DNA of 64,000 nt, from the NCBI GenBank assembly GCA_964583975.1, contig CAZOXU010000001.1, positions 291,552 to 355,551 on the forward strand, in the 5' to 3' direction. Positions 5,701-53,299 of the stretch are shown here, in pieces. How positions within the stretch are numbered: position 1 is the stretch's first letter; each line of letters begins with the position of its first letter. Under the pieces are notes generated by a model that worked only from the letters and a program-made list of their open reading frames with translations, was not told the origin of the DNA and made no database searches. Both the position numbers and the translations under genes were made by a program. This DNA comes from an uncultured Planctomycetales bacterium (lineage in GTDB: Bacteria > Omnitrophota > Gorgyraeia > Zapsychrales > Fredricksoniimonadaceae).

Positions 5701-8196
5701 TTAAATGACAATACTAACAAGCTTCTTGGGGACGACAATAATTTTCTTGATAGTAGCCCCTTCGAGATAGCGGGCCACATTGGCATCTGCCAGGCAGAGT
5801 TTTTTCAGATCTTCATCAGAGGTGCAAACCGATGTCGTAAACTGACCACGAACCTTACCATTGATTTGAACGGCATAGGTGACTTCATCTTGCACCAGGG
5901 CTCGCTCATCAAAGGCGGGCCAGGCGACCTTACTGACGGTCTGATCTTTTTTGCCCATCATCTGCCAAAGCTCTTCGCACAAATGCGGCGTAAATGGGGT
6001 TAACAATAAGACGAGGGTTTCAATGGCTTGATTCAACGTAACCGTTGATTCTTGCTTATACTTATCAACGGCATTTGCCAAGATCATAGCCTGACTAATG
6101 GCTGTATTAAATTTATAACCTTCTTCAAAAGCTTGGGTAATCTGTCGGATAGCTAGATGACGGGCACGCTCTAAGGTTTGATCTGCTCCCTGCTCGGTGG
6201 TTTCTTTCGCATAACGTTTCTCAACCATCAAGTAAACACGGTTTAAAAATCGCCAGGCCCCCTCTAAACCATCACTATTCCATTCGAGCTGATCTTCTGG
6301 CGGAGCAGCAAAAAGAATAAATAAACGTAAAGTATCTGCACCATATCTATTTAAAACTTCATCCGGATCAACTGTGTTGCCCCGAGATTTAGACATCACT
6401 TCTCCATCTTTAAGCACCATCCCCTGGGTTAAAAGACGGACAAACGGTTCATTTAAATCAGTTAGTCCTAAATCTTTGAAGAATTTAGTAAAAAAACGAG
6501 AGTACAACAAATGTAATATAGCATGCTCGATACCACCGATGTATTGATCGACCGCCATCCAATATTTGGCTTCATCCTTATTAAAGACTTCTTGGTTGTT
6601 ATCTGCAGAACAAAACCGTAAGAAATACCAGGAAGAATCAAAGAAGGTGGCCATGGTATCGGTTTCACGGCGGGCTGCTTTAGAACATTTAGGGCACTTC
6701 ACATTAACGAAATCTTCTACACGATTTAAAGGAGAGCCTCCCTGCCCCGTGATTTCCACATTCTTAGGTAATGCTACAGGCAATTGCGCATAAGGAACAG
6801 GAACCACACCGCAAGCCTCGCAATAAATCATGGGAATCGGCGTTCCCCAGTAACGCTGGCGGGAAATCAGCCAATCACGCAAGCGCCAATGAATGGTTGT
6901 TTTACCCATGCGTTCTTGAGCCATCCATTCAGCAATTTTCTTCTTAGCTTCTTCATTATTAAGACCATCAAATTGCTTCGAATTAACCAAAACACCCGCA
7001 TCTTCATAAGCCTTGGTCATATCTTTTAATTCAAAAACCTCTTTAGGGTTTTGAATAACAATTTTCATGGCAAGCTTATGGTTGGTAGCGAATTCAAAAT
7101 CGCGCTGGTCATGGGTGGGTACCGCCATAATGGCGCCAGTCCCATACTCCATCAATACATAGTCCCCAATATAAACCGGAATAGAATCACCATTAACAGG
7201 ATTGATGGCATAACGGCCTGTAAACACGCCTTCCTTACGCTGATCGCCTGACATACGAAGGCTTTTACTTTTATTGGCTGTCTTCTCAATAAAGGTCCCA
7301 ATTTCTTTTTCTTGAGGAGTGCCAGCGACAAGTTTTTTAACCAAAGGATGTTCTGGAGCCAGGACCACATAGGTAGCCCCAAAAATGGTGTCGGGACGGG
7401 TAGTGAAAACCGGAATAATTTCGTCCGTAGGGGCAGGCCCCTGTGCCTGCCCTTCTTGAGGGCGACCACGGGGGGTCGCCCCTACAATTTTAAAATAAAT
7501 CTCTACCCCAAAACTCTTACCAATCCAATTCTCCTGCATAGCTCGCACACGTGAAGGCCAATGCTCGAGCTGCTTTAAGTCTTCCAGTAAGGTTTCAGCG
7601 TAATGAGTAATCTTTAGATACCACTGATCTAAGTCTTTTTGTTCGACATTGTTTTTGCAGCGCCAGCAAGCGCCATCGATAACTTCTTCGTTGGCTAAGG
7701 TTGTCTGACAGCTAGGACACCAATTGACGGAAGAAGCTTTCTTATAGGCAAGCCCACGTTCATACATCTTTAAAAAGATCCACTGATTCCATCGGTAGTA
7801 GTCACTGTCGCAAGTGGCAATTTCACGGTCCCAGTCATAGGCAAAGCCCATTTTCTTGAGTTCTTCTCTCATCTGGTCGATACATTGGTAGGTCCACTGA
7901 CCTGGGTCGGTCTTATGTTTGATAGCCGCATTCTCAGCAGGCTGACCAAAGGCATCGTAGCCCATGGGGTGAAGCACATTAAACCCTTGCATCATTTTGT
8001 AACGGGCCATCACATCGCCGATGGTATAGTTACGCACATGGCCCATATGAATCTTGCCCGAAGGATAGGGAAACATTTCTAAGACATAATACTTCTTCTT
8101 AGAAGCATCCGCTTCGACTTTAAAAGTCTTGCGCTGTTCCCAGAAACGTTGCCATTTTGATTCAATGGATTTGATGTCGTTGGTGGTATAAGGCAT
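5701..8196 (-). CDS. leuS: Leucyl-tRNA synthetase
   Basis: HMGH (PSGKIHMGHVRNY) and KMSKS (VMSKSRGN) class-I motifs; TTRPDT editing-domain motif; bacterial LeuS length. Contains a 59-bp element insertion. Confidence 0.95.
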   Translation of the reverse strand: MPYTTNDIKSIESKWQRFWEQRKTFKVEADASKKKYYVLEMFPYPSGKIHMGHVRNYTIGDVMARYKMMQGFNVLHPMGYDAFGQPAENAAIKHKTDPGQWTYQCIDQMREELKKMGFAYDWDREIATCDSDYYRWNQWIFLKMYERGLAYKKASSVNWCPSCQTTLANEEVIDGACWRCKNNVEQKDLDQWYLKITHYAETLLEDLKQLEHWPSRVRAMQENWIGKSFGVEIYFKIVGATPRGRPQEGQAQGPAPTDEIIPVFTTRPDTIFGATYVVLAPEHPLVKKLVAGTPQEKEIGTFIEKTANKSKSLRMSGDQRKEGVFTGRYAINPVNGDSIPVYIGDYVLMEYGTGAIMAVPTHDQRDFEFATNHKLAMKIVIQNPKEVFELKDMTKAYEDAGVLVNSKQFDGLNNEEAKKKIAEWMAQERMGKTTIHWRLRDWLISRQRYWGTPIPMIYCEACGVVPVPYAQLPVALPKNVEITGQGGSPLNRVEDFVNVKCPKCSKAARRETDTMATFFDSSWYFLRFCSADNNQEVFNKDEAKYWMAVDQYIGGIEHAILHLLYSRFFTKFFKDLGLTDLNEPFVRLLTQGMVLKDGEVMSKSRGNTVDPDEVLNRYGADTLRLFILFAAPPEDQLEWNSDGLEGAWRFLNRVYLMVEKRYAKETTEQGADQTLERARHLAIRQITQAFEEGYKFNTAISQAMILANAVDKYKQESTVTLNQAIETLVLLLTPFTPHLCEELWQMMGKKDQTVSKVAWPAFDERALVQDEVTYAVQINGKVRGQFTTSVCTSDEDLKKLCLADANVARYLEGATIKKIIVVPKKLVSIVI
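7427..7485. repeat. Family II nested-palindrome element, copy A (59 bp), in-frame inside leuS
   Basis: GTAGGGG-CAGGcccctgtgCCTGCC-cttcttga-GGGCGACCacgggGGGTCGCCC-CTAC. Translated as RGRPQEGQAQGPAP immediately before the TTRPDT motif. Confidence 0.9.
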
Positions 8197-9944: not shown

Positions 9945-10938
9945 AGACTTACTTGAGGACCAACGCCCGCAAGCCCTAGAAGAAATTGCCCAGGAAGCTG
10001 CTCGGGTGACTCGACAATATTTTGGCCGTACTATTGGATTGTATGCCCCGCTTTATTTATCGAATTACTGCTCCAGTCATTGCACCTACTGCGGCTTTCA
10101 TAGTAATAACAAAATTACTCGCATAAAGCTTACTCCTGATCAATATCGCCAAGAAATGCAGGTCATTCACTCTCAAGGCATCCGTAATATTCTCATGCTT
10201 ACAGGCGAATCATATAAACACACGCCGGTTGAATATTTAAAAGAAGCAGCCCAGGCTGCCTCGGAGTATTTTCAAGGCATTGCACTTGAAGTCCATCCTA
10301 TGAAAACCAATGAATATCAAGAACTCTTTACTGCAGGGGTCGATGGCATTACGGTTTATCAGGAAACCTATGACCGCAGCCGCTATGCGCAGGTGCATCT
10401 TTCTGGCTACAAAAAAGATTATGATTTTAGACGAGCCACTCCCCAGCGAGCTGCTGAAGGTGGCATGCGCCAGATTGCCATGGGCGTTCTTTTAGGATTG
10501 AGTGATGCTGCTAGCGATCTTCTAGAACTTTATAACCACTTACGCGAGATGGAACAATCTTTTCCTGGCGTTGAGTACAGCGTTTCCTTTCCCAGGCTTC
10601 GCACTATTAAAGACAAAGAATTTGCCCACTGTGATGTCGATGATATCCAATTAACCAAGATTGTTGCCTTAACACGCATCCTTTTTCCTCGGGTAGGAAT
10701 CAATCTTTCCACCCGTGAAGATGCGCGCTTACGTGATCATTTGCTTGAAATCGGAATTACCCGTATGTCCGCAGGTTCAAATACATCGGTGGGTGGATAC
10801 TCTCTGCTGAACGAAGAAGAACAAGACCCTCAATTTGATATTAAAGATGAACGCTCGGTGGCTGATATTATTGCCCTACTTAAACGTAAGAATTTTGATC
10901 CTGTCTTTACGGACTGGCGACGAATTGAAAATAGGTAA
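9922..10938 (+). CDS. thiH: Radical-SAM 2-iminoacetate synthase ThiH (tyrosine lyase)
   Basis: [10 protein letters not shown] radical-SAM cluster motif; located in the thiS-thiG-thiH cluster. Confidence 0.8.
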
Positions 10939-10943
10939 AAAAT

Positions 10944-11048
10944 GTCATCCCCGAATGCTTTTATCGGGGATCCAGGCACAAGTGCCAGCCAGAGGCTGGT
11001 CAGCCCTGGACTGAAACTAGGTTCCCGATTAAAACGTTCGGGGATGAC
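10944..11048. repeat. Family I palindromic element, copy 2 (105 bp, extra GC-rich hairpin inserted in its centre)
   Basis: GTCATCCCCGAATGCTTTTATCGGGGAT...GTTCCCGATTAAAACGTTCGGGGATGAC, with the internal palindrome CCAGCCAGAGGCTGG. Intergenic between thiH and thiF. Confidence 0.85.
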
Positions 11049-11060
11049 ATAAGGTTATCC

Positions 11061-12508: not shown

Positions 12509-14476
12509 TTAAATGACTCGATCATTTCCCCCATCTATGGGGATTTGCGCGCCGGTGGTCTTGGCAAAGATGCGACCTGCCAAGCAACAAACTAAATCAG
12601 CCACATGATAAGAGGTGATTTCTGTCTTTAAAAGATTGCTCTTTTTGTAGTCTTCAATCGACAGACCATAAGCTTTGGCGCGCTTCTCTAAAACTTCCTT
12701 GGTCCAAATCGCTGTATCAAATACTTGATTAGGATGAACCACATTCACACGAATACCTTGGGGCGCTAATTCCAGAGCTGCCACTCTGGCCATTTGGGTT
12801 AGACCTGCCTTGGCGACCGAATACGCCCCTGCTCCAGGGCCTGGTGCTGGAACATTCTTAGAACCAATGATAATAAAGGTCGGATCAATACCCTGACTCA
12901 AATACGAAATAGCAGCCTTCAACAAACGCTGATGCGAAGTTAAATTAATCTTCACGCTGCGATCCCAAGTCTCAGGATTCATATTCTCAAGAGTTTCGCT
13001 GGCAGGAAAAATACCTGCATTACTCACCACAATATCCAAACCACCAAATCGTCTGACCGTGGCAGCCACAGCTTTCTGCAATTCAGCATCCTTAGTCACA
13101 TCACAAACCATTCCTACCACACTTACTCGGTTAAAGATCTTGGTAATTTCCTTATTGATATCAAGCGCCACTACGTGTGCTCCCTGAGCAGCTACTCTCT
13201 CAACACAGGCCTTGCCGATCCCGCTCGCCGCGCCAGTCACCAATGCAATCTTGCCTTGCAGCTCGAGCGGCTTAGGGTTCTTGGCAAGCTTGGCTTGCTC
13301 GAGCTCCCAGTATTCCATCTCAAAAATATCTTTCTCAGACAAAACCTTCCAGCCGCCCAAGCCCTCGGCAATCTGAATAGCAGCAATCGTATGCTCCACG
13401 ATATCGGAAATGATCTGGGCATCCTTGATCGAGCGACCAAAGCTTACTAACCCTTGTCCTGGCCACACAGCCCAGCGTGGGGCTAGATCAAGGCACTTCA
13501 ATTTGTTATTGGTATTGCAGTCAAAATAGAATTGATAATTCTTAGCGTAGGCTACGACATCCTTGGCAGGATCTTTGCCGATGACAACCGGAATAGGTTT
13601 GGTGCGAATCACGTGATCAGGGGTGAGTGTGCCTCGGGTGGCGATTTTTCCTACATCTGGAAGTTTTGAGAAGCCAACTGAACCAGCATCGTTTCTTAAA
13701 TCGGCAATAACTGCTGCCCCCAAAGCTACCGAGACAGCCTTTCGTATTTTACTTAAGGTTAATAACTCTTCCGAGCCAGCCTTGGCCGAAGCAATCTTAA
13801 TTCGCTTCTTAGCAATGAACTTCTCTGCCTCGATGACTAACCGGATATGATTTTCGTAGCTCGTCTTGGCATCATCACCAAAGGTGAATAAGCCATGGTT
13901 TAATAAAACAATGCCCTCGCACTTACTCCAATTCAGATCACGTGTCATTTCATAAACTTTTTTAGCTAACACAAAGCCAGGCATTACATAAGGAACAACT
14001 AAAACGCGATTGCCGTAAATTTCTTTAATAAGCGAGGCACCCTTAGGCGTATTGGTAATGGTTACAACAGCATCAGTGTGTGAGTGATCGACAAAGGTAT
14101 GTGGAATAATGGCGTGCAGGATGGCTTCGACCGACGGATTGGGTGCATGCGGATTAATCATGGCTGCTCTTTGCCCCACGACCATTTGCGCATCAGACAG
14201 CTCTGAAAAGGTAGCCATACGCTTTAAGGCGTCCAACCTGACAGCAGCAAACCCTTCCGCTTCAATCGTAGCTAAATCCCAGCCACTGGCTTTAATATAG
14301 AGAACTTCTTGGGTGTCTTGGAAGAAATCTTTGACGAGGGCTTTGACAGAAGTATTGCCACCCCCGTGCATAACCAGGGATGGCTCTCTTCCTAAAAGAC
14401 GAGACGTGTAAACACGTAGCTTTAGTGGATCATTTCCACAAACATCCGCTACCTGTTGGTCCCACAAACTTTTCAT
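12509..14476 (-). CDS. Bifunctional class II aldolase/adducin-domain plus short-chain dehydrogenase (rhamnulose-1-phosphate aldolase/SDR-like)
   Basis: N-terminal class II aldolase domain; C-terminal SDR with the TGAASGIGKA Rossmann motif and a YxxxK region. Confidence 0.75.
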   Translation of the reverse strand: MKSLWDQQVADVCGNDPLKLRVYTSRLLGREPSLVMHGGGNTSVKALVKDFFQDTQEVLYIKASGWDLATIEAEGFAAVRLDALKRMATFSELSDAQMVVGQRAAMINPHAPNPSVEAILHAIIPHTFVDHSHTDAVVTITNTPKGASLIKEIYGNRVLVVPYVMPGFVLAKKVYEMTRDLNWSKCEGIVLLNHGLFTFGDDAKTSYENHIRLVIEAEKFIAKKRIKIASAKAGSEELLTLSKIRKAVSVALGAAVIADLRNDAGSVGFSKLPDVGKIATRGTLTPDHVIRTKPIPVVIGKDPAKDVVAYAKNYQFYFDCNTNNKLKCLDLAPRWAVWPGQGLVSFGRSIKDAQIISDIVEHTIAAIQIAEGLGGWKVLSEKDIFEMEYWELEQAKLAKNPKPLELQGKIALVTGAASGIGKACVERVAAQGAHVVALDINKEITKIFNRVSVVGMVCDVTKDAELQKAVAATVRRFGGLDIVVSNAGIFPASETLENMNPETWDRSVKINLTSHQRLLKAAISYLSQGIDPTFIIIGSKNVPAPGPGAGAYSVAKAGLTQMARVAALELAPQGIRVNVVHPNQVFDTAIWTKEVLEKRAKAYGLSIEDYKKSNLLKTEITSYHVADLVCCLAGRIFAKTTGAQIPIDGGNDRVI

Positions 14477-14489
14477 AAATTAATCTCAT

Positions 14490-14557
14490 GTCATCCCCGA
14501 ATGTATTTATCGGGGATCTAGTACACTAGGTTCCCGATTAAAGCATTCGGAAACGAC
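14490..14557. repeat. Family I palindromic element, copy 3 (68 bp, right terminus degenerate)
   Basis: GTCATCCCCGAATGTATTTATCGGGGATCTAGTACACTAGGTTCCCGATTAAAGCATTCGGAAACGAC. Intergenic between the aldolase/SDR gene and cysK. Confidence 0.85.
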
Positions 14558-14568
14558 AGAAAGTTTTC

Positions 14569-36089: not shown

Positions 36090-39000
36090 CTACCCTTTGG
36101 CTAGCTGGGTGTTCTTTTGAAGCTGCGAGAACATGGGCAAAGTGATGGCTGGCCTGATTTCCATGATAACCGGCACCAGACCATCAATATGAATATTTTC
36201 CAAATTCTGCTGACTAATTGGCAGCGGCACACCTGCTCCATCACGCTTGATCTGCAAATTCAAATTTGCTGCGTTAAAGTCGATACCACCCTTTGTCGCC
36301 ATTGCAGAGTCAGAGATTTTATCCGTCACGTATTGCACGATATCGCCAACCGTTCGAAGTGATGCCGTTTTGTCGTTAGGAATTCGAATATTAAAACTAT
36401 CCTCAAGCTCTATCATTAGCACAATGACGTCTTGAGAATCTACACTGAAATCCTTTTGGAGATCATCGGTATCTTTAAATTCAATGTGATCAAGACTTGG
36501 AACTACTTTCTTGATTGCTTCATGTACTTTCTGTCTTACCCCTTCAGATTTGGTTGTCATGGCAGAATCATATAAAGCGTTTATTTGATCTTTAATCGCT
36601 TTAATTTCTTGGTCCAATTTTTGCAATTGATTCCCCAAAACTGTTGGGCTATATGCTCCCCCTTGTTGAGCCCCATATCCCCTTCCCAAAGCCGACACAT
36701 AATCGACGTTAACCTTAACTCTTTGAGCACTCAATTCGCTTTCTTTATTTTGCAATTTCCTTCTATAATCAGTTTTTGAAATTACTTCTATATTCAGCTT
36801 CTCTGCTACGATTGACAATGCCCCTTCTTGAGTAAGAAGCTCTGCTGCGGTAATTCTTTGAAATGCATCATCTGACAAAACAATTGTCGTATTCTCAACG
36901 CCTTCACTTAAATATCTCTCAAATGCAACCATAGGGTCATTGTTCTGGGAAATCTCAAGATCTGCTTTTCCATCTCTAGAAATTTTTAATTTCCCTGAAG
37001 ACCATGAAACACTCGTATGTATTTTATTAAAACCTATCATCCAATAATTAGCATTTTGATAATTATAAAACACATCGACCTCGCCACTTGTTGCTTGTAA
37101 AACGCCTGTCTTCTTACCTGTAAACGCCATTTTTTGCTCTTGTAAACCATTGAAGTCCGGTGCGTTAACTAATTGGTCAAAGGCTTCACGCCATAAAGGA
37201 ATTTTAATCTTTGTAATCGCAATCATCGCTTCATCAACAAACCTAGCCTGGTGATCGTCTTGATCTGGACGACCTATTTCTGCCTGAGCCTGATGAATAG
37301 CAGTATCGAGGCTATCTAATTCTCGCTGCAGGGTCTCAATTTCCATTGCGTGCTGTAATCTGTCAGATTCATTATTCTGAACAGCAGCGGCATTCATTAA
37401 TTTGCGCTCTTGGGCTATTCGATCATTAATCTTACCTTGTTGCTTTAGAAGATTATCTAAACTTGTTTGAGGCAATTCGCCACGCATCGCGGCATCGCCG
37501 CTTCCAGTAGCGTTACTAATCTCTGCCCATGCTGTATTAATTTCTGCTTTTACATTCTCAAGTTCGCGCTTCAATACATCAATTTGTACTCTTAAACGGC
37601 TTATTATTGAAGGATTTGCAACAACATTTACACCCGCTGCTGCTGTATTTTTGGCGTACTCTGCATCTAATTCTCGTTGAAATGAATCAATTTGAGCTTG
37701 AATCGATCTTTGACGCTGTTCTAATTCGCCTTTTTGTTTGGAAGCTGTCAAAAGTTTAGCAGCACCAAGATTGGATTGATTGATACCTGCTTCTAATCGC
37801 GCTTGGGGTGGCAATTCGCCACTCATCGCGGCGTCAGAATCATCACGGCCGTTATCAATTTCTGGCAGTAACGCAAGAATATTGACCTTTATTCTTTCAA
37901 GCTGAATCTGTAATGCAGCAATTTGTGGTCTTAACGAATCGGCTTTAGTACGATCTAACTCTAATTCTTTTTGCAGACTATCGATTTGTGCTTGAAGCTC
38001 GCGTTGTTGCGCTTCTAACTGTCCTTTTCTAACTGAAGGACTGATCTGTAGATCACTTCTATTCGCCATTGCCGCGTCAGCCTTCGCTGTTGTCACTACT
38101 CCTTGACCCTCTTTAATAGGAGAAACTAATTTTGTATCAATGCCCTTGGCCTCAATGGCAGATAAAACAATATTTCTAATGTCAGGATCTATGCTACTAT
38201 CGGTATTGATTAATCCTGCTTTTTGTAGTGTAGCCTTTGGCCCATCATAAATCTTAAAATCTGGACTTCTTGCTAAATCTTCCAAATCAGCTAATGTCAA
38301 TGCGCCTAGAGTTTGATTCAACACTCCTCTTAACTTCTCCATCGTGCTATCCACCACTTCCTTACTTGCTTGCGATCCATTTCTTAAAGTGACTACATCC
38401 ATCGCTGCATCAAAACCTTGTAATAAATTCAATTCCTCTTGCGCCCTTAGCAGGGATTTTTCTGTTTTTCTTAAAGCTGCTTCCAAATCAGTCATTTTTG
38501 CAAACTTATCCTCTGCTCTTGCTATGGCCAACTCACGATTAAGCCCATCAAATTGACCTTCCAACTCTTCAACCTTTTTTTGAGCATCAGCAATAGCTTG
38601 AGAAGATTTTTGAGCCGCCATCGCGGAGTCTCTGCGCAAGATTTCATCCCAAATTCGCTGCATTATTTTCTTATCATTTGTTATTTGCTTGGCAATTCTT
38701 TTTCGTTGACGCGAACTTAAAAGAAAACTATCGACTATTGCGACTCCAATGGCATGATGCGCTGCCCACAAGGAAGATAGATAGATCGTCTGAAGCGCTG
38801 TCTTATAATTCTTACTAACAGCCAAATCAAAAATTTGCAAAGGGCTCATTTTCTTTAAACGGGGCTTAGCCGCCATCGCTGCATCTTTTTTAGTCTTCAT
38901 CGCATCTTTGATAGCACCTAAGGCTTTTACATATTTGAGTTCGGTCAATGTTCTATCAGCAATGCCATCTTCTAAATAGTCTGCTGCTGCTTGAAGTTCA

Positions 39001-40745
39001 TCTGATGTAATTTGATCTGTTGGCTCCTCATTAATAAACTGATCAACAACTACAGATGGGGTGAGCTTTACTACGTCACTTTGTAGCGATTCAACTTTTT
39101 CTTCTAACTTTTTCAGCAATTGATTCAAAACTGCCAATTCTCCAACCAATTTATTGCCTGCGCCTTGAACTCGTCGCAAAGCTCTGACATTTTCTCGATC
39201 CTTCAACATTAATCTTGTTGCACGAATAACTGTCAATATTTGCTGACGCTTTTCAGCATCCCCTATCGCAAGACGCTTCAAATCGATACCACGAAACACA
39301 TTAGAAACCGCAGCAATTCTTGCCAAAATTGATTGAAAAAGGAGAACGTCTTTACCATTTCCGCTGATCGCACCTTCCATACTTGTAATAACACTGTCGA
39401 ATTTTATATTTAACGTTCTGATCAAATCCTCTGAATCTTCTTCAGCCTTTGTCATCGCCGCATCAGCCTCAGACTTCTCTGCTAATACAGCTTCTACAGC
39501 ATCTAACTTTCCCGCCTCGGTAGTCAGGATCGGCGTTGCCATAGCAGAATCGGTTGTTGTGCGCATTACCTTTCCATATTCATTCTTTGTTCCACCTGAA
39601 AAATACTTCCTTGGCACGGGCTGATGGGTGAATCGGTCGGTGTCTTCTTTAATATAGTTAAATACACCCTTCTTATAAGCCTTAATGTATTGCTGATAAA
39701 TGGCTTCATTGTTCTTAGGATCTTGATTAATACCGTTAACCTTGGCTTTGTTAGCATAGATCTTGCTTAATAGAGATTCCTTCAAAGCTCGCTTGTACCA
39801 GGCTGCTAAAATCATGCCGCTATACACCTGACGAAGCATGACAAAGTTCTTGCCTTCATTGACTTCTTTTTCAAGGGCTGGAAGTACTATTTCACGGACG
39901 ATTTGGGAGCCGATTTGATTGGTTTCCGTAGGGGCAGGCCCCTGTGCCTGCCCTTCTTGAGGGCGACCACGGGGGGGCGCCCCTACAGCATTTTTATTCA
40001 TAGCCATGTAATCCTCTTCTAGCATCACCTTCAAATGATTCTTTAACACATACGCTGTATTACCAGATTCATACACCGTGGCATCATCTGGCACAATCCA
40101 TACCTTATTAAAGGTATTAACTGGAATCTCTGTGCTGCCAAATTGCTGCTGAGCTTGGGTATACACCTTATCCCAGAACTTCTTACCTAACTCATCTTCA
40201 GGGTATATTAAAGAAGCAGTGATTTGCTTTAATAGGTAGTCTTGAGCTAATAAATCCCGGCCCATCTCAGTCTTACCAAAGTCTTCTTCTACGATACGGT
40301 TCTTTTCATAGGGTGATAGGTTGACCCATTGATTCTCATCAGGCACGGCTAAAGAAGCCATAAAGTACTTAATTAAATTCTTATAAGCGATTTGTTTATC
40401 TTGATCAGATAGACTTTCATCACCTTTGTAGATGATGAAGTCGAATTTAAGAGGATTTTCAGGATGAATAACTAAACCTTTAAGATGTGCAGGGGTGAAT
40501 TCAGGGCTTAGAGCAACTCTGACTCCTGGACTTGGCATCCATGGCATCGAACCAGCAGCCACTTGAGAATAAGCAGGCCGTTGAATGGAAGTACTAAGAA
40601 AAGTCACTAAAATGGTGATAGAAATAAACTTACGAATGGTCATAAAAACCCTTCTTCCTGAGGTATAAATAGTAAATTTGGGGTCAAAAATTCTACACTT
40701 CTTGAAATATGCGGCAAGTATGCCATGGGAAAAGCGCTTTGTCAA
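36090..40745 (-). CDS. Giant secreted modular protein (probable start 40642, ~1517 aa) with coiled-coil repeats, recurrent D-[SA]-A-M-x motif, and a C-terminal acyl-carrier-protein-like domain
   Basis: Long single ORF. Signal peptide follows the internal Met (MTIRKFISITILVTFLSTSIQRPAYS), which is preceded by AGGAAG. Carries a palindromic-element insertion at 39928-39986. The ACP-like segment is FSVDSQDVIVLMIELEDSFNIRIPNDKTASLRTVGDIVQYV. Confidence 0.7.
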   Translation of the reverse strand: MTKRFSHGILAAYFKKCRIFDPKFTIYTSGRRVFMTIRKFISITILVTFLSTSIQRPAYSQVAAGSMPWMPSPGVRVALSPEFTPAHLKGLVIHPENPLKFDFIIYKGDESLSDQDKQIAYKNLIKYFMASLAVPDENQWVNLSPYEKNRIVEEDFGKTEMGRDLLAQDYLLKQITASLIYPEDELGKKFWDKVYTQAQQQFGSTEIPVNTFNKVWIVPDDATVYESGNTAYVLKNHLKVMLEEDYMAMNKNAVGAPPRGRPQEGQAQGPAPTETNQIGSQIVREIVLPALEKEVNEGKNFVMLRQVYSGMILAAWYKRALKESLLSKIYANKAKVNGINQDPKNNEAIYQQYIKAYKKGVFNYIKEDTDRFTHQPVPRKYFSGGTKNEYGKVMRTTTDSAMATPILTTEAGKLDAVEAVLAEKSEADAAMTKAEEDSEDLIRTLNIKFDSVITSMEGAISGNGKDVLLFQSILARIAAVSNVFRGIDLKRLAIGDAEKRQQILTVIRATRLMLKDRENVRALRRVQGAGNKLVGELAVLNQLLKKLEEKVESLQSDVVKLTPSVVVDQFINEEPTDQITSDELQAAADYLEDGIADRTLTELKYVKALGAIKDAMKTKKDAAMAAKPRLKKMSPLQIFDLAVSKNYKTALQTIYLSSLWAAHHAIGVAIVDSFLLSSRQRKRIAKQITNDKKIMQRIWDEILRRDSAMAAQKSSQAIADAQKKVEELEGQFDGLNRELAIARAEDKFAKMTDLEAALRKTEKSLLRAQEELNLLQGFDAAMDVVTLRNGSQASKEVVDSTMEKLRGVLNQTLGALTLADLEDLARSPDFKIYDGPKATLQKAGLINTDSSIDPDIRNIVLSAIEAKGIDTKLVSPIKEGQGVVTTAKADAAMANRSDLQISPSVRKGQLEAQQRELQAQIDSLQKELELDRTKADSLRPQIAALQIQLERIKVNILALLPEIDNGRDDSDAAMSGELPPQARLEAGINQSNLGAAKLLTASKQKGELEQRQRSIQAQIDSFQRELDAEYAKNTAAAGVNVVANPSIISRLRVQIDVLKRELENVKAEINTAWAEISNATGSGDAAMRGELPQTSLDNLLKQQGKINDRIAQERKLMNAAAVQNNESDRLQHAMEIETLQRELDSLDTAIHQAQAEIGRPDQDDHQARFVDEAMIAITKIKIPLWREAFDQLVNAPDFNGLQEQKMAFTGKKTGVLQATSGEVDVFYNYQNANYWMIGFNKIHTSVSWSSGKLKISRDGKADLEISQNNDPMVAFERYLSEGVENTTIVLSDDAFQRITAAELLTQEGALSIVAEKLNIEVISKTDYRRKLQNKESELSAQRVKVNVDYVSALGRGYGAQQGGAYSPTVLGNQLQKLDQEIKAIKDQINALYDSAMTTKSEGVRQKVHEAIKKVVPSLDHIEFKDTDDLQKDFSVDSQDVIVLMIELEDSFNIRIPNDKTASLRTVGDIVQYVTDKISDSAMATKGGIDFNAANLNLQIKRDGAGVPLPISQQNLENIHIDGLVPVIMEIRPAITLPMFSQLQKNTQLAKG
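39928..39986. repeat. Family II nested-palindrome element, copy B (59 bp), in-frame inside the giant ORF
   Basis: Nearly identical to copy A (differs by about 2 nt, in the second hairpin). Encodes PPRGRPQEGQAQGPAPT. Confidence 0.9.
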
Positions 40746-41998: not shown

Positions 41999-42063
41999 AA
42001 AATTAGGGACAACCCCCTATTTTATCCTTTCACTTAAGAAAATAGGGAGTTGTCCCTAATTTT
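41999..42063. repeat. Family III palindromic element, copy 1 (65 bp): AAATTAGGGACAACCCCCTATTTT ... AAAATAGGGAGTTGTCCCTAATTT
   Basis: Hairpin with an ~20-bp stem; stem differs from copies 2/3 by paired changes (ACCC/GAGT vs GCGC). Encodes the last 8 codons plus stop of miaA. Lies 2 nt upstream of the hflX start. Confidence 0.85.
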
Positions 42064-44944: not shown

Positions 44945-45616
44945 TTATTGGGCACGGCTTAATTCAAACACAAAACCCTTAACGCGGCCGGTCACAGGAT
45001 CTTTGACCTTTGAGGTCATTCGGGCTATCTCTTCTGTCGAACACTCGTCTTCAAATTTCACCACCAGCCGGCGGCTAGGCTTAGAGCGGTTATGGACCTT
45101 GGCTACAGGTTCCTGGCCCAAAAAACAACCCTTGGTATACGAGGTAAATTTAAACTCATCGATATTTAGAATAAATTCATCCGCCTGAAAATCTCCGCCG
45201 GAGACGGATCCGCCTTTGGCGGAAACGCCCATCAAAGGGATTTTTCTTTCAAGTCGAAAGAGGGTAAATTCCTCATCAGAAACATTACTTTCTGTTATTT
45301 CATTTGAGAAAACCACGCGGCCTGAATCGATATTCATATACGACCGATACTCTGCCGATGGGATAAGGCTTGTATGATTAAGCTTAGCATAGCGCTCAAG
45401 ATGTTTTAACAACGCCTCGTTAGCCACTTGAGGTACGCTTAATAAAAAGTGATCTTCCGATCGCTTTTCTTGGGCGCAGGTGGCAATGACCCGGCCATGT
45501 TGATTTAAAAAGGCATTAAAAGGCTGATCTAGTGAATTAGACGTCAGGCCGTTTAAGAATTTCTCAGCATTGCCGCTAACTTCTAAGACAATATCATCAA
45601 GTTTGTATAGTCGCAT
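44945..45616 (-). CDS. YgfZ/GcvT-like folate-binding protein
   Basis: Conserved KGCFLGQE motif of the YgfZ family. Confidence 0.5.
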   Translation of the reverse strand: MRLYKLDDIVLEVSGNAEKFLNGLTSNSLDQPFNAFLNQHGRVIATCAQEKRSEDHFLLSVPQVANEALLKHLERYAKLNHTSLIPSAEYRSYMNIDSGRVVFSNEITESNVSDEEFTLFRLERKIPLMGVSAKGGSVSGGDFQADEFILNIDEFKFTSYTKGCFLGQEPVAKVHNRSKPSRRLVVKFEDECSTEEIARMTSKVKDPVTGRVKGFVFELSRAQ

Positions 45617-45618
45617 AT

Positions 45619-45687
45619 AAATTAGGGACAGCGCCCTATTTCACCCTATTTTTTCTTGCTTGCTAAATAGGGCGCTGTCCCTAATTT
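45619..45687. repeat. Family III palindromic element, copy 2 (69 bp): AAATTAGGGACAGCGCCCTATTT caccctattttttcttgcttgct AAATAGGGCGCTGTCCCTAATTT
   Basis: Perfect 23-bp inverted arms. Provides the cca C-terminus KLGTAPYLASKKK plus stop. Abuts the start of the downstream gene. Confidence 0.9.
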
Positions 45688-47052
45688 AGCTGCCAACACC
45701 AACGCTTCTTGTTTCGTAGCTATCTTCCCCAATGCTTGAGCCTCTTGAACTTCAGATAGAATCTTCGTAAATAGCGGCGATGGTTTTAATTTAAGCTTTT
45801 TGATTAAATCATGCCCCGTCAACAAACGTACCAGAGGTTTCTGATTTTGACTGTCGATAAAACGCTCGATCACCTGCCAGCAGGTTTTACGATGATGCTC
45901 ACTCTTGGCCTTCTTGGTCAAAGGCCCACGTGTGGCTCGCTGATCAGCGAGCGCTAAAAGTAAAACACTTAAAGCTTCCTGCTTTGTATCACGCAAAAAA
46001 CGAAAAACCATTCGCTCGGAAGGTTGTTTAAAATTTGACATATATCCTGGGCGCAAATGCCAGGCCACCATATCTTCTAAGAAATATCGCTCCTTGACCG
46101 CCAACTTTAAATGTTTAGCCACAATGCGGGTGATATCAGCCCCCACCTTTTCATGACCATGAAAGGTCATGCGGTCTTTTTCTTTTTTCTTGGTGTCAGG
46201 TTTACCGATATCATGCAACAGACAAGCAAACTTCAACAACGCATATCGCTTGTGATTGGCTGCAATTTCTTCTTGGAGATAATTTTGAATAAATGGATCT
46301 TCGATTTCGAGAGCTAACAGTTCAAACTGACGTACCACCTCGAGCGAATGCTTCCAAACATCCAGATGATGATATCCGCCTTGATGAACGCCTTCCATCA
46401 CACCGAGTTGGGGCATGATCTTTTGCAGTAATCCTGCTTTGTGCATCAAAACAATGGTCTCAACCGTTCTGCTAGAAGCTAAAACCTTAAACCATTCTTC
46501 TCGAACCCGCTCGACCGAAACCTTACTTATGCGACTAATATCTTTTTGAATCTGCTTAAAAGTCTTAGCTTCGATCTTAAATCCCAACTGAGCCGATAAA
46601 CTAAAGGCTCGCATTAGTCTCAGCGGATCATCAGCAAAAGCCCGGGACGCGACCATCCTGATAGTCTTTGATTTCAGATCTTTAGTGGCCCCACGATAAT
46701 CCAATATCTTCGTATCATTAATACTCTGGCATAAGGTATTGATCGTAAAATCACGTAGGGCTACATCCTTCTGCAGTGATTCAGCACGAAAATCAGAAAA
46801 ATCATAGGTCCACAGTTGCCCTTCTTCTTTTTTGACAACCCGTCCGCACGGATGTTCTTCATCTAAAAGAACAAAAGCCCCTTTGATCTTTTTAGCAAAG
46901 GCCCGAGCCAGTTCGATTGCATTCTTCGAGACCGTAAAATCAAAATCAAAACCTTCGCGGTTTAAATATTGGTCGCGTAAACGGCCGCCAACCAAATAAA
47001 CCGAAACTCGGCCTCGAGCTGCTAATGTTTGGATAGTAGATAAATACTTCAT
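45646..47052 (-). CDS. cca: CCA-adding tRNA nucleotidyltransferase / poly(A) polymerase family with HD domain
   Basis: Pol-beta nucleotidyltransferase N-terminus YLVGGRLRDQYL..DFDF and HD motif LLHDIGKP. Confidence 0.75.
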   Translation of the reverse strand: MKYLSTIQTLAARGRVSVYLVGGRLRDQYLNREGFDFDFTVSKNAIELARAFAKKIKGAFVLLDEEHPCGRVVKKEEGQLWTYDFSDFRAESLQKDVALRDFTINTLCQSINDTKILDYRGATKDLKSKTIRMVASRAFADDPLRLMRAFSLSAQLGFKIEAKTFKQIQKDISRISKVSVERVREEWFKVLASSRTVETIVLMHKAGLLQKIMPQLGVMEGVHQGGYHHLDVWKHSLEVVRQFELLALEIEDPFIQNYLQEEIAANHKRYALLKFACLLHDIGKPDTKKKEKDRMTFHGHEKVGADITRIVAKHLKLAVKERYFLEDMVAWHLRPGYMSNFKQPSERMVFRFLRDTKQEALSVLLLALADQRATRGPLTKKAKSEHHRKTCWQVIERFIDSQNQKPLVRLLTGHDLIKKLKLKPSPLFTKILSEVQEAQALGKIATKQEALVLAAKLGTAPYLASKKK

Positions 47053-47459: not shown

Positions 47460-47948
47460 CTATTTGCCTTTCTTCTTTTTATTCTTTCCTAAAATCGTCT
47501 GCAATTCCGACATAAACTGGTTCACATCACGAAACTGGCGATACACAGAAGCAAATCTTACATAAGCCACTTCATCAACAGTTGAAAGCTGATTCATCAC
47601 CATCTCACCAATATCTTTAGCCTCAACTTCATGATCGTATTTTTTACGAACGACCCGCTCGATCTCATCCACCATTGATTCAATTTGATCAACACTCACA
47701 GGCCTTTTTTCACAAGCCTTGATGATCCCATTTGTAATCCGTGTTCGATCAAAAGTCTGTCTTCGGCCGTCACGCTTAACTACCATCAAAGGCACCTGCT
47801 CAATATATTCGTAGGTGGTAAAACGTTCTTCACATTTAGGACATTTGCGTCGGCGACGAATGGATGTCCCATCGCTGTTCATGCGAGAATCAACAACATT
47901 CGTATCTTTATAGTGACAAGCAGGACAGCGCATATATTTACATGTCAT
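47460..47948 (-). CDS. nrdR: Transcriptional repressor NrdR (conserved N-terminus MRCPACH begins at 47933)
   Basis: Zinc ribbon CPACH..CPKC followed by an ATP-cone. The first five codons (MTCKY) are contributed by the terminus of a Family I element. Confidence 0.85.
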   Translation of the reverse strand: MTCKYMRCPACHYKDTNVVDSRMNSDGTSIRRRRKCPKCEERFTTYEYIEQVPLMVVKRDGRRQTFDRTRITNGIIKACEKRPVSVDQIESMVDEIERVVRKKYDHEVEAKDIGEMVMNQLSTVDEVAYVRFASVYRQFRDVNQFMSELQTILGKNKKKKGK

Positions 47949-48066
47949 CCCCGAAATCTTTTACCTGCCTGCCGGCAGGCAGGTCGGGGATCTAGAGCTT
48001 GCAAGAAAATCTCTGATTTCCGCCAAAGGCGGACCAGCCTCAGGCTGGAAAACATTCGGGCTAGAC
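47944..48066. repeat. Family I palindromic element, copy 4 (123 bp, divergent, with internal CCTGCCTGCCGGCAGGCAGG palindrome)
   Basis: GTCATCCCCGAAATCTTTTACC...TCGGGGATCTAGAGC...GGAAAACATTCGGGCTAGAC. Intergenic between nrdR and glyA. Confidence 0.8.
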
Positions 48067-49312: not shown

Positions 49313-49329
49313 AATCTCCTCTTAAGATT

Positions 49330-49397
49330 GTCATCCCCGAATGCTTTTATCGGGGATCTAGTGCACTAGTTGCCCGACTAAAACATTCGGGCATGAC
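49330..49397. repeat. Family I palindromic element, copy 5 (68 bp)
   Basis: GTCATCCCCGAATGCTTTTATCGGGGATCTAGTGCACTAGTTGCCCGACTAAAACATTCGGGCATGAC. Intergenic between glyA and rpiB. Confidence 0.85.
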
Positions 49398-49402
49398 AGG
49401 TG

Positions 49403-49855
49403 TTATTTCATAAACTTCTTCTCAATCGCTTGAATCTGTTCAAATCGTCTCTGGTGACGACCACCTTCAAATGGGGTAGTTAACCAAGTCTCAACTATAG
49501 GAATGATATTGGCAGCTTCAATAAAAAGTGAGCCTAAAACTAAAATATTGGAATTGTTATGTTCACGCGATAACTTAGCAGCTTCCTTGGTATAACACAA
49601 AGCCGCATAGGCGCCTGGAACTTTATTGGCAGCAATTGAATGTCCTATTCCTGTCATACACACTAGAATTCCACGAGCATCGGCATTGCCAGCAACCTTG
49701 CTTGCCACCTCTAAAGAAAATTGCGGGTAATCACAACCCATTTCTTCTTGAAAGGTGCCTACATCAACTACTTCATGCCCCTTTTTGCTTAAGGATTCCA
49801 CAATGCTCTTTTTTAATTCGAATCCTCGATGATCTGCGCCAATATAAATTTTCAT
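49403..49855 (-). CDS. rpiB: Ribose-5-phosphate isomerase B
   Basis: RpiB/LacAB fold; ~150 aa with the active-site region GIGHSIAANK. Confidence 0.85.
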   Translation of the reverse strand: MKIYIGADHRGFELKKSIVESLSKKGHEVVDVGTFQEEMGCDYPQFSLEVASKVAGNADARGILVCMTGIGHSIAANKVPGAYAALCYTKEAAKLSREHNNSNILVLGSLFIEAANIIPIVETWLTTPFEGGRHQRRFEQIQAIEKKFMK

Positions 49856-50919: not shown

Positions 50920-50923
50920 AATT

Positions 50924-50996
50924 AAATTAGGGACAGCGCCCTATTTCACCTTATTTTTTCTTTCTTACTTGCTAAATAGGGCGCTGTCCCTAATTT
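50924..50996. repeat. Family III palindromic element, copy 3 (73 bp)
   Basis: Arms identical to copy 2. Provides the purD C-terminus KLGTAPYLASKKEKIR plus stop. Abuts the tsaC start. Confidence 0.9.
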
Positions 50997-52259
50997 AGCA
51001 AGGGCTTTTTGTCCAATATCACGTCTAAAGAAGATATGATCAAATTGGATCTTATCGACAGATTCATAGGCCTTGGCAATGGCTTTTTCAAGTGAAGCAC
51101 CTAAACTAGCAACACCTAAAACTCTTCCCCCCGCTGTGACTAGAGAACCGCCATCATTTTTTGTTCCTGCGTGAAAAACAATAGTGTCTGGATCATTAAT
51201 ATCTTCTAGGCCCTTGATCTCATAACCATTTTGATATTTGCCAGGATATCCGCCGGAAGTCAAGACCACACAGACACATGATCGCTGGTCCCATTGTACC
51301 TTTAATTCATTGAGTCTGCCGTCACACGAAGCCAACATGATTTCAACAAGATCGCTTTTCAATTTAGGTACAATACTCTGCGTTTCTGGGTCACCAAAAC
51401 GCGTGTTAAATTCTAACACAAATGGCCCGCTATTGGTTAACATTAAGCCTGCGTACAATACTCCCTTAAATGGTACACCCTGGGCATACATTCCCCGCAA
51501 AGTAGGTTCAATAATTTTCTTAATAATGATATCTAAAATCTCTGCAGTCACAATTGGGGCAGGACAATAAGAACCCATACCACCGGTATTCGGCCCTAAA
51601 TCTTCATCAAAAATCCGTTTATGATCTTGAGCGCTAGGCAAAACCAAAAAATGTTTGCCATCACAAATCGCCAACACCGAGGCTTCCTGACCTTGCAGGC
51701 AATCCTCAACGACGATTCTTTCTCCAGCCGTTCCATAAAGCTTCTGAACCATGATTTCATCAACAGCTATCTGGGCTTCTTTTAAATTGGCGCACACATA
51801 CACACCTTTACCTGCTGCAATCCCGTCAGCTTTAACTACCAAAGGAAATCTCGCTGAGTTCAAGAAATCTAAGGCATCGATAAATCTTTCAAAAACTTTA
51901 TAGCTGGCGGTTGGGATATCATGACTCGATAAGAATTGTTTCGTATAAATCTTGCTGCCTTCTAATTGTGCAGCTTCCTTACTTGGACCAAAGATCTTCA
52001 GTCCTTTTTGAGAAAAGACATCAACAATACCAACAACCAAGGCTGCCTCGGGGCCTACCACGGTCAGGTCAATTTTCTTAGATAGAGCAAATTTCAACAA
52101 GCCTTCGATATCATCAACAGCAATATTGACGCACTCGGCAATCTGAGCGATACCACCATTGCCTGGGGCGCAATAAAGCTTCTTAACCTTAGGACTCTGT
52201 TTGATCTTCCAGCACAGCGCATGCTCTCTGCCGCCAGAACCAATGACTAGAATGTTCAT
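50946..52259 (-). CDS. purD: Phosphoribosylamine-glycine ligase
   Basis: ATP-grasp PurD; MNILVIGSGGREHAL N-terminus. Confidence 0.9.
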   Translation of the reverse strand: MNILVIGSGGREHALCWKIKQSPKVKKLYCAPGNGGIAQIAECVNIAVDDIEGLLKFALSKKIDLTVVGPEAALVVGIVDVFSQKGLKIFGPSKEAAQLEGSKIYTKQFLSSHDIPTASYKVFERFIDALDFLNSARFPLVVKADGIAAGKGVYVCANLKEAQIAVDEIMVQKLYGTAGERIVVEDCLQGQEASVLAICDGKHFLVLPSAQDHKRIFDEDLGPNTGGMGSYCPAPIVTAEILDIIIKKIIEPTLRGMYAQGVPFKGVLYAGLMLTNSGPFVLEFNTRFGDPETQSIVPKLKSDLVEIMLASCDGRLNELKVQWDQRSCVCVVLTSGGYPGKYQNGYEIKGLEDINDPDTIVFHAGTKNDGGSLVTAGGRVLGVASLGASLEKAIAKAYESVDKIQFDHIFFRRDIGQKALAKLGTAPYLASKKEKIR

Positions 52260-52268
52260 TTTTTCCCT

Positions 52269-52295
52269 GTACGGGCTGGGTAACCCAGCCCCTAC
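52269..52295. repeat. Mini single-hairpin relative of Family II: GTACGGG-CTGGGtaaCCCAG-CCCCTAC
   Basis: Shares the CCCCTAC terminus; the other terminus is one mismatch from GTAGGGG. Fills the purM-purD intercistronic gap and overlaps the purM stop. Confidence 0.6.
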
Positions 52296-53299
52296 CCTAT
52301 AAAAATAATTTTCTTCTTATTATCAGAAACAACCTTACCAATCACAAATGATTCTAATTTCAACTGACGAAGGAACGCTTGCACCTTAACAACATCCTTG
52401 GGTGCAACAACCAAGCTCAATCCAATTCCCATATTAAAGGTGCGATACATATCATGCTCAGGCACATGGCCCTTATCTTGAATCAAGGTAAATATACGTG
52501 GCACAGGCCAGCTACCCTTATGTATAGAGAAGGCCAATCCCTTTGGTAAAACCTTGGTTAATTTCTCATACCAAGCACCGCCGGTCATGTGCGCCATGCC
52601 CTTGACGGTAAACTTTTCTAATAAAGCTAAAACTGGCTTCACATAAATACACGTTGGTTTGAGCAAAATCTGTGCATAGTCTCGTTGTTCTTTAGCGCTT
52701 AAAGCTTTGCGAGCCAGAGAATATCCATTGGAGTGTAATCCTGAGGAAGGCAAACCAATGACCACATCACCGTCTTGGATTTTTGTACCATCTATAATAC
52801 GATCGCGCTCAACAATTCCTACAGTAAACCCTGCTAAATCGTAGTCTTCGCCTCGGTACATATCGGGCATTTCAGCGGTCTCGCCCCCGATGAGAGCGCA
52901 GCCGGCCTGATGACATCCAGCCACAATGCCCTTCATCACATCCTTCATCATCCGGTTATTGAGTTTGCCGGTCGCAATATAATCGAGGAAGAACAATGGT
53001 TTAGCACCCGTACACAAGACATCATTGACGTTCATGGCTACCAAATCAACGCCTACCTTATCATGCTTACCAACCAAATTAGCAACAAGAAGTTTGGTGC
53101 CAACGCCATCCGTCGAAGAAACAAGGACTGGATTTTTATATCCTTTTAAATCCAAAGCAAACAAAGCACCAAACGAACCTGGACGATTTAATACCCCTTT
53201 ACTGATGGTTGATCGAGCCAAGCCTTTGATATCATCGACAAAGCGATTGGCCTTAGCAATATCCACACCAGCTTTTTTATAGGTTAATGATAGTTTCAT
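52292..53299 (-). CDS. purM: Phosphoribosylformylglycinamidine cyclo-ligase
   Basis: AIR synthase family; 335 aa. Confidence 0.9.
   Translation of the reverse strand: MKLSLTYKKAGVDIAKANRFVDDIKGLARSTISKGVLNRPGSFGALFALDLKGYKNPVLVSSTDGVGTKLLVANLVGKHDKVGVDLVAMNVNDVLCTGAKPLFFLDYIATGKLNNRMMKDVMKGIVAGCHQAGCALIGGETAEMPDMYRGEDYDLAGFTVGIVERDRIIDGTKIQDGDVVIGLPSSGLHSNGYSLARKALSAKEQRDYAQILLKPTCIYVKPVLALLEKFTVKGMAHMTGGAWYEKLTKVLPKGLAFSIHKGSWPVPRIFTLIQDKGHVPEHDMYRTFNMGIGLSLVVAPKDVVKVQAFLRQLKLESFVIGKVVSDNKKKIIFIG

Follow-up and report, generated by a model that had tools for sequence, protein, structure and literature searches.

An in-frame doublet of GTAG-tagged hairpins in an Omnitrophota genome, probably REPIN-like mobile DNA

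Why should two different protein-coding genes carry the same GC-rich stretch of some 60 nucleotides, in frame and almost letter for letter? The question is raised by a window of 64,000 nt (the whole stretch of DNA analysed here) from an uncultured Planctomycetales bacterium, assigned by GTDB to the Omnitrophota (Gorgyraeia; Zapsychrales; Fredricksoniimonadaceae) and corresponding to forward-strand positions 291,552 to 355,551 of contig CAZOXU010000001.1 in assembly GCA_964583975.1. One copy, a 59-nt doublet of hairpins at 39928-39986, lies in frame in a giant open reading frame (ORF), and the other in leuS, the gene for leucyl-tRNA synthetase (LeuRS). The explanation we favour, with a probability of roughly 0.7, is that two GTAG-tagged repetitive extragenic palindromic (REP) hairpins here form a tail-to-tail dimer, a REPIN-like, miniature and non-autonomous piece of palindromic DNA whose copies would be made by an enzyme of the REP-associated tyrosine transposase (RAYT) type.

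The doublet (GTAGGGGCAGGCCCCTGTGCCTGCCCTTCTTGAGGGCGACCACGGGGGGGCGCCCCTAC) has a GC content of 75%, against about 41% in the surrounding genome region, and is composed of two 26-nt halves of the same build: GTAG as an unpaired foot, then a GC stem of 8 bp, a 6-nt CCCYGT loop and the return strand of the stem. In unit A (39928-39953, plus strand), the foot occupies 39928-39931, and the stem strand GGGCAGGC (39932-39939) pairs with GCCTGCCC (39946-39953) across the loop CCCTGT (39940-39945). Unit B (39961-39986, minus strand) reads GTAG GGGCGCCC CCCCGT GGTCGCCC, its unpaired minus-strand GTAG lying at 39986-39983; across both copies of the doublet its stem takes the form GGGCG(A/C)CC, followed by the loop CCCCGT and the return GGTCGCCC. 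The units stand tail to tail around a 7-nt spacer, TTCTTGA (39954-39960), with both GTAG feet pointing outward; they belong to one REP type but have different stems, and so make a heterodimer. Each half has the features of a GTAG-tagged REP, namely a GC-rich stem-loop of 20-40 nt with an unpaired GTAG at its 5′ foot, and the whole has those of a REPIN, in which two inverted REPs around a short spacer can form one long hairpin. Its arms, of 27 nt each and separated by 5 nt, show 74% complementarity. The minimum-energy fold of the entire doublet is a single long imperfect hairpin, at -21 kcal/mol for DNA and -43 kcal/mol for RNA, with structure z-scores of -4.3 for RNA and of -3.5 to -4.3 for DNA.

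Searching the window with up to three mismatches returns one further copy only, at 7427-7485 in leuS, with a single mismatch, and none in 100 shuffles. The second in-frame copy announced by the original prediction is thus real, although its estimate of about two differing nucleotides was too high: the copies differ at one of 59 positions, G39977 in the giant ORF against T7476 in leuS. Both stems of the leuS copy are perfect, and G39977 disrupts one stem pair of unit B, whose hairpin alone is predicted to fold at -8.1 kcal/mol versus -10.0 in the leuS copy. On the minus strand, the doublets read VGAPPRGRPQEGQAQGPAP(T) in the giant ORF and VGATPRGRPQEGQAQGPAP(T) in leuS, within the spanning peptides VGAPPRGRPQEGQAQGPAPT and VGATPRGRPQEGQAQGPAPT, respectively. 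The flanks had been described as unrelated, which holds beyond a slightly larger unit: TCC on the left (39925-39927; 7424-7426 in leuS) and A39987 on the right also match, extending the common unit to 63 nt, or 21 codons, with 62 of 63 bases equal, and identity stops beyond it. These flanking bases could be part of the copied unit or could agree by chance. Replication of the doublet as a unit, a further property of REPINs, is seen here in the common TTCTTGA spacer and the 62 of 63 shared positions of two copies. A classical miniature inverted-repeat transposable element was considered and rejected: the doublet has inverted termini (GTAGGGGC/GCCCCTAC), but no target-site duplication is formed by the flanking TCC and A.

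Two near-identical copies also invite the suspicion that a single repeat was collapsed, or chimerically joined, into two places during assembly or binning. The source is a metagenome-assembled genome (MAG), and short GC-rich repeats can mislead assemblers; the copies are nevertheless shorter, at 59-63 nt, than a sequencing read, a base distinguishes them, the unique sequence to either side of each runs on into an intact ORF that aligns with homologs across the junctions, and independent assemblies of relatives bear elements at the same leuS codon. Such an artefact is highly improbable, and the premise that the two loci are distinct stands.

Comparison of the host genes with their homologs bears on whether the doublets arrived as insertions. 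The giant ORF (36090-40745, minus strand) encodes 1551 aa from a TTG start, its true start being probably M35, followed by a signal-like N-terminus. Its doublet sits in a hypervariable loop between KVMLEEDYMAMNKN and IGSQIVREIVLP, in an N-domain whose family counts more than 1300 Omnitrophota members, and the nearest homologs of this domain (70% identity) have no GTAG insert in the loop. In leuS (5701-8196, minus strand, 831 aa), the insert falls in the turn preceding VFTTRPDT, at the beginning of the editing domain. Against 22 residues in the window protein, most of the 120 LeuRS homologs aligned have a turn of only five, K-D-S-x-E; most Omnitrophota LeuRS have no insert at all in that loop, and solved structures of Thermus LeuRS have a 17-residue gap at the position of the insert. 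These alignments support the view that the doublets are a repeat inserted into coding DNA and not ancestral protein sequence.

Both loops also hold other material. The variable loop of the giant-ORF N-domain family gathers inserts of several repeat families (VIPAKAGIHNKN, VIARS... and QPGDMF...), and the same LeuRS turn contains repeat-like peptides such as SAKGGSASGGK and EPAGRQAGT in other Omnitrophota (P0004, P0006, P0020, P0033, P0074, P0088 and P0092), so that this loop would tolerate, or attract, several kinds of short insert. The remainder of the giant ORF shows about 12 D[SA]AM motifs, a phosphopantetheine-binding domain near the C-terminus (aa 1406-1473) and a GGIDFN motif.

A third and diverged copy, also expected from the original prediction, is present at 3130-3181 in a UvrD/REP-family helicase gene (2723-4312, minus strand, 529 aa). 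This 52-nt doublet comprises GTAG, stems of 8/9 bp with 3-nt loops and CTAC, folds into two separate hairpins and is read in frame as VGVGSPDPNKGRETLPL. The window contains three GTAGGGG...CCCCTAC elements in all (39928, 7427 and 3130) and none beyond these; all three are in frame inside minus-strand ORFs, none is intergenic, and they occupy surface or hypervariable protein loops. That both near-identical copies reside in minus-strand genes had been given weight; it is true and uninformative, because the minus strand encodes 48 of the 51 window ORFs that reach 150 aa or more. GC skew is negative across 1-64000, and the whole window seems to belong to a single replichore in which genes strongly favour one strand. 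Two sites in the helicase can be compared with relatives. At site 1, the relative L001 has a closely related 61-nt doublet, the window and 43 of 45 homologs have no insert, and the remaining two homologs have unrelated inserts; site 2 is occupied in both the window and L001, by differing sequences. The residues 'QQGA' at site 1 were considered as an excision scar and this was rejected, since a loop of equal length in 43 of 45 homologs identifies them as the empty state.

How far does the hairpin extend beyond this organism? A scan of species-representative genomes with the 20-mer of hairpin 1 returned at least 120 DNA stretches, on which the downstream counts rest. The 20-mer is identical in these stretches, which come from MAGs with about 20 phylum- or class-level labels, including Chloroflexota, Desulfobacterota, Planctomycetota, Binatia, Latescibacterota, Acidobacteriota, Nitrospirota and Omnitrophota, and the GC content of the listed loci ranges from 39 to 74%. 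Among the 135 occurrences in the matches listed, 114 directly follow GTAGG and 47 form GTAG...CTAC doublets of 50-101 nt. Unit A represents the hairpin type that is commonest among the loci, and its stem is backed by covariation: perfect variants include AGGC/GCCT, AACC/GGTT, ACCC/GGGT, GGCC/GGCC and GACC/GGTC, and across 37 distinct 26-mers 96% of cells pair, a percentage somewhat raised by the removal of 7 of 44 distinct 26-mers, with six of the eight pairs changing on both sides. These values were attained by none of 500 shuffles. Six of the sequences removed had at most five of eight positions paired and are probably not REPs, and the seventh was GGGCAGGC/GCCGTGCC; GGGCGGGC/GCCTGTCC was kept. 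The spacer is likewise not private to this genome: a metagenome scan for the spacer junction found a near-identical doublet, TTCTTGA included, in soil contigs of 61-67% GC, and its matches were only in such unrelated high-GC contigs. In the latter (L123-L132), the near-identical doublet is flanked by other hairpin repeats, for example GTCCCCGCGAAAGCGGGGAC, in composite clusters like bacterial interspersed mosaic elements (BIMEs). Rfam gave no match for the doublet, only sub-threshold miRNA noise; a literature search on the hairpin sequences returned only primer coincidences, and literature on palindromic repeats in Omnitrophica only mentions of CRISPR.

The original prediction further suggested that only insertions open in this one frame survive in coding DNA. 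This variant of the doublet is open in three of six frames, the GTAG foot closing one frame per strand and the TGA of the spacer closing another, the Val-Gly frame on the plus strand, so openness alone forces no single frame. A bias is nonetheless present. Among 78 GTAG...CTAC elements in the window and the loci, 20 lie unambiguously inside long ORFs, and 17 of these are read as GTA-GGG (Val-Gly) and three in the +2 frame (binomial p = 0.003); with orthologous sites merged by hand, the counts are 13 versus 3 (p = 0.02). The window copies are read in the one frame that gives a peptide rich in Gly, Pro, Ala and Gln. Element lengths fall in all three classes modulo 3, and because the length difference between filled and empty alleles is smaller than the element itself, it is the net in-frame outcome on which selection would act. 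Both hairpin orders and orientations occur inside ORFs in other loci. The proposed constraint is therefore only partly right: selection appears to filter the frame, but orientation is not fixed.

Such a bias, together with the strong predicted RNA structure and a covariation that reveals selection on pairing, could be read as the mark of a host function, either a structured mRNA element acting in stability, translational pausing or RNase processing, or a selected flexible Gly/Pro linker; effects in repair genes have been speculated upon (PMC3733652). Covariation, however, is equally expected of a transposase substrate, and the same DNA occurs in unrelated proteins and in intergenic clusters of other genomes. 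Most orthologs work without the insert, Rfam gives no match, and the giant-ORF copy has already lost a stem pair. A role for the host is thus improbable, and on the mobile-element explanation the encoded peptide would most likely be a neutral passenger.

If the doublet is mobile DNA, which enzyme would handle it? A relative, L001, whose leuS is 81% identical, offers a candidate: immediately downstream of leuS (12596-13147) lies a gene for a 183-aa Y1_Tnp protein. The gene contains an in-frame doublet past the HUH motif, and a second doublet is found at its 3′ end. By tblastn, a RAYT-like homolog is found in 8 of 120 listed 8-kb loci, with a hairpin inside or beside each; the family, present in many phyla, is represented by L001 and by L007, L022, L033, L050, L068, L076, L098 and L118. 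The RAYT-like proteins of relatives share the motifs MPNHxHG and WQRNYYEH, match Pfam Y1_Tnp with E = 2e-7, and have as their top NCBIfam model NF047646, 'REP-associated tyrosine transposase', at 65-74 bits versus 21-29 bits for IS200; the Joint Genome Institute labels several of the homologs RayT, and a sequence search for a solved structure found none. The association of repeat and gene is intimate. A REP-derived peptide stands between MPNHxHGIIxI and GLPEIVRxFK in 116 of the 120 nearest homologs (P0391-P0510), while one homolog has the clean linker, and half-hairpin arrays, such as EPARTEPARTEPAPT or ENGQARGP x7, often follow the HUH motif. Moreover, the REP type tracks the transposase clade, being of the form VGAGSEPA...AGLEPAPT near L001 and VGAGPRACP...GQPQGVAPT in the transposases of L068, L076, L098 and L118.

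A mechanism for the window copies can be proposed from these relatives. Somewhere outside the window, the genome would encode a Y1 (HUH) tyrosine transposase of the RAYT type that makes or overwrites the copies; such an enzyme would bind the folded single-stranded hairpin together with its GTAG foot and would cut and rejoin adjacent to it. The E. coli enzyme TnpA-REP recognises GTAG and hairpin in single-stranded DNA and cleaves flanking CT or CA (PMC8266576). Selection would then retain those copies that lie in tolerant loops, with a net length that is a multiple of three and a stop-free, structurally harmless frame.

The near-identity of the two window copies had been taken as evidence of recent copy-and-paste activity, and here the leuS site of relatives is instructive. 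The same leuS codon position is occupied in the window (loop at 7424-7490) and in L133, L001, L002 and L134 by hairpins that differ in type or number: the nearest relative, L133 (83% aa identity), has one hairpin with a TTCCAAA loop, L001 a doublet of the TTCCAAA-loop type, and L002 and L134 single hairpins. In L135, only GTAGG..AC is left (GTAGGAACA, encoding 'VGT'), which resembles the foot and tail of a REP with its core gone and could be what excision left behind or an empty site favoured as a target. In the LeuRS tree, uninserted lineages fall between lineages with an occupied site. In L001, the leuS doublet is built from the same pair of hairpins as the doublet that lies at the 3′ end of the RAYT-like gene, and other genomes differ. 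Copies thus resemble one another within a genome but not between genomes, a pattern that fits either repeated use of one site or replacement of the core in place. Since an orthologous site can hold different hairpin types, in-situ replacement or gene conversion has to be considered alongside new transposition, and near-identity is a poor clock because the 20-mer of hairpin 1 is identical across many phyla. The shared 7-nt spacer and four flanking bases are as expected if the doublet was copied whole. Recent copy-and-paste is thus plausible but weaker than first claimed.

The same observations can be carried further, to the proposal that both loci are old REP-occupied sites, homogenised in place through gene conversion, through template switching at hairpins or through strand exchange that a transposase mediates between resident copies, the near-identity being then a product of concerted evolution. 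The leuS site, the differing sequences at helicase site 2 in the window and L001, and the within-genome likeness in L001 all speak for it. The nearest homologs of the giant-ORF N-domain are without an insert, by contrast, which suggests that this site may be newly occupied, albeit these homologs are not true orthologs, and the homology available for recombination is limited to termini of 7-11 nt. The proposal would also still need the same family and probably the same enzyme, and it consequently modifies the transposase explanation more than it replaces it. We consider it unlikely, though it deserves more weight than a host function.

Several points weigh against the REPIN-like explanation itself. 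The mobility of this REP type, and the movement of the window copies by a RAYT-like enzyme, are what we infer from relatives, as is the cognate enzyme of this organism: tblastn with the L001 transposase found no Y1 transposase gene in the 64 kb. The scores of the RAYT-like proteins fall short of the curated NF047646 cut-off of 80 bits. Classical REPs occur in large numbers and mainly outside genes, yet the 64 kb show only three copies, every one of them intragenic. The shortfall in length between filled and empty alleles means that the insertion is not 'clean'. Lastly, with an identical hairpin in distant phyla, the near-identity of two copies is no proof of recent movement.

As a more tentative extension, which we regard as possible and no more probable than that word implies, the element would belong to a cross-phylum family of GTAG hairpins whose RAYT-like transposase bears its own substrate in its coding sequence; enzyme and repeat would travel and co-evolve as a unit, and the hairpin type recognised by the current transposase would again and again replace the copies resident in tolerated loops, the leuS turn among them. 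The papers searched contain no description of a RAYT-like family with its own repeat in frame after the HUH motif, nor of in-situ turnover at orthologous coding sites. This widespread family, together with the signs of turnover at orthologous sites, is the most interesting by-product of the analysis outside the window, and it raises the questions of why a transposase family keeps its own repeat in its gene and whether resident copies are overwritten in place. For the window itself, three GC-rich, Gly/Pro-coding patches in ordinary genes would be explained as selfish palindromic DNA and not as protein features, and in annotation and structure modelling they can be regarded as dispensable inserts in loops. 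Near-identical short repeats are, furthermore, an unreliable sign of recent movement where their sequence is conserved across phyla.

Other repeats are present in the window. A second, unrelated palindrome family of about 75 nt, composed of TGTCATCCCCGAATGCTTTTATCGGGGATCTAG and an inverted partner, is intergenic and located at gene ends (1725-1808, 10938-11059, 14484-14568 and 49324-49408, with a half copy at 47938-47975). Inverted repeats of 24-29 nt, 15-27 nt apart (AAATTAGGGACAGCGCCCTATTT / AAATAGGGCGCTGTCCCTAATTT), mark junctions of consecutive minus-strand genes at 41999-42063, 45613-45693 and 50923-50997. A single hairpin, GTACGGGCTGGGTACCCAGCCCCTAC, lies between two ORFs at 52258-52306 and may be a degenerate GTAG-type REP in intergenic DNA.

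Among known systems, palindromic elements of Rickettsia, described by Ogata and colleagues in 2000, reportedly sit in frame in essential protein genes at tolerant surface sites. The parallel with the window element is one of palindromic selfish DNA in frame in such genes (cited in PMC3733652). Assignment to the Rickettsia palindromic elements (RPEs) was nonetheless rejected, the doublet being 59 nt long and GTAG-tagged: RPE-1 measures about 100-150 bp, RPE-4 and RPE-6 are CGTC-tagged and have no associated transposase (PMC3733652), and the host lineage is another. With the BIMEs and REPs of E. coli and their TnpA-REP (PMC8266576, PMC3479197), the element shares the combination of hairpin and GTAG foot that serves for recognition; the E. 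coli REPs, however, have a bulged stem and are extragenic, and the hairpin type described here is known from sequence alone.

The REPIN-RAYT system (Bertels & Rainey 2011, PMC3116915; Bertels et al. 2017, PMC5581495) resembles it in the two inverted REPs with a spacer, in copying as a unit and in the Y1/HUH transposase, which here is found in relatives. Classical REPINs lie outside genes, occur in tens to hundreds of copies and flank a RAYT gene that is present once, while here the repeat is also found inside the transposase ORF of relatives. The closest precedent is provided by the GTAG REPs of Di Nocera, De Gregorio & Rocco 2013 (PMC3733652), who described such REPs and the dimers (HH/TT) that they form. 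Copies in frame were reported there for the genes of UvrD/REP helicases and tRNA synthetases and for uvrA/B; the intragenic dimers encode 20-30 aa, and Opitutus terrae, of the Planctomycetes-Verrucomicrobia-Chlamydiae (PVC) superphylum, has the most intragenic copies. Alike are the unpaired GTAG, the GC stem of 6-13 bp, the short loop and the inverted pairs, often heterodimers; the likeness to the 24 REP families of that survey is one of architecture. Unlike them, the hairpin here is common to many phyla and three of three copies in 64 kb are intragenic, and the survey was made without Omnitrophota. Intragenic GTAG REP dimers are therefore already known, and what is new is their occurrence in the Omnitrophota.

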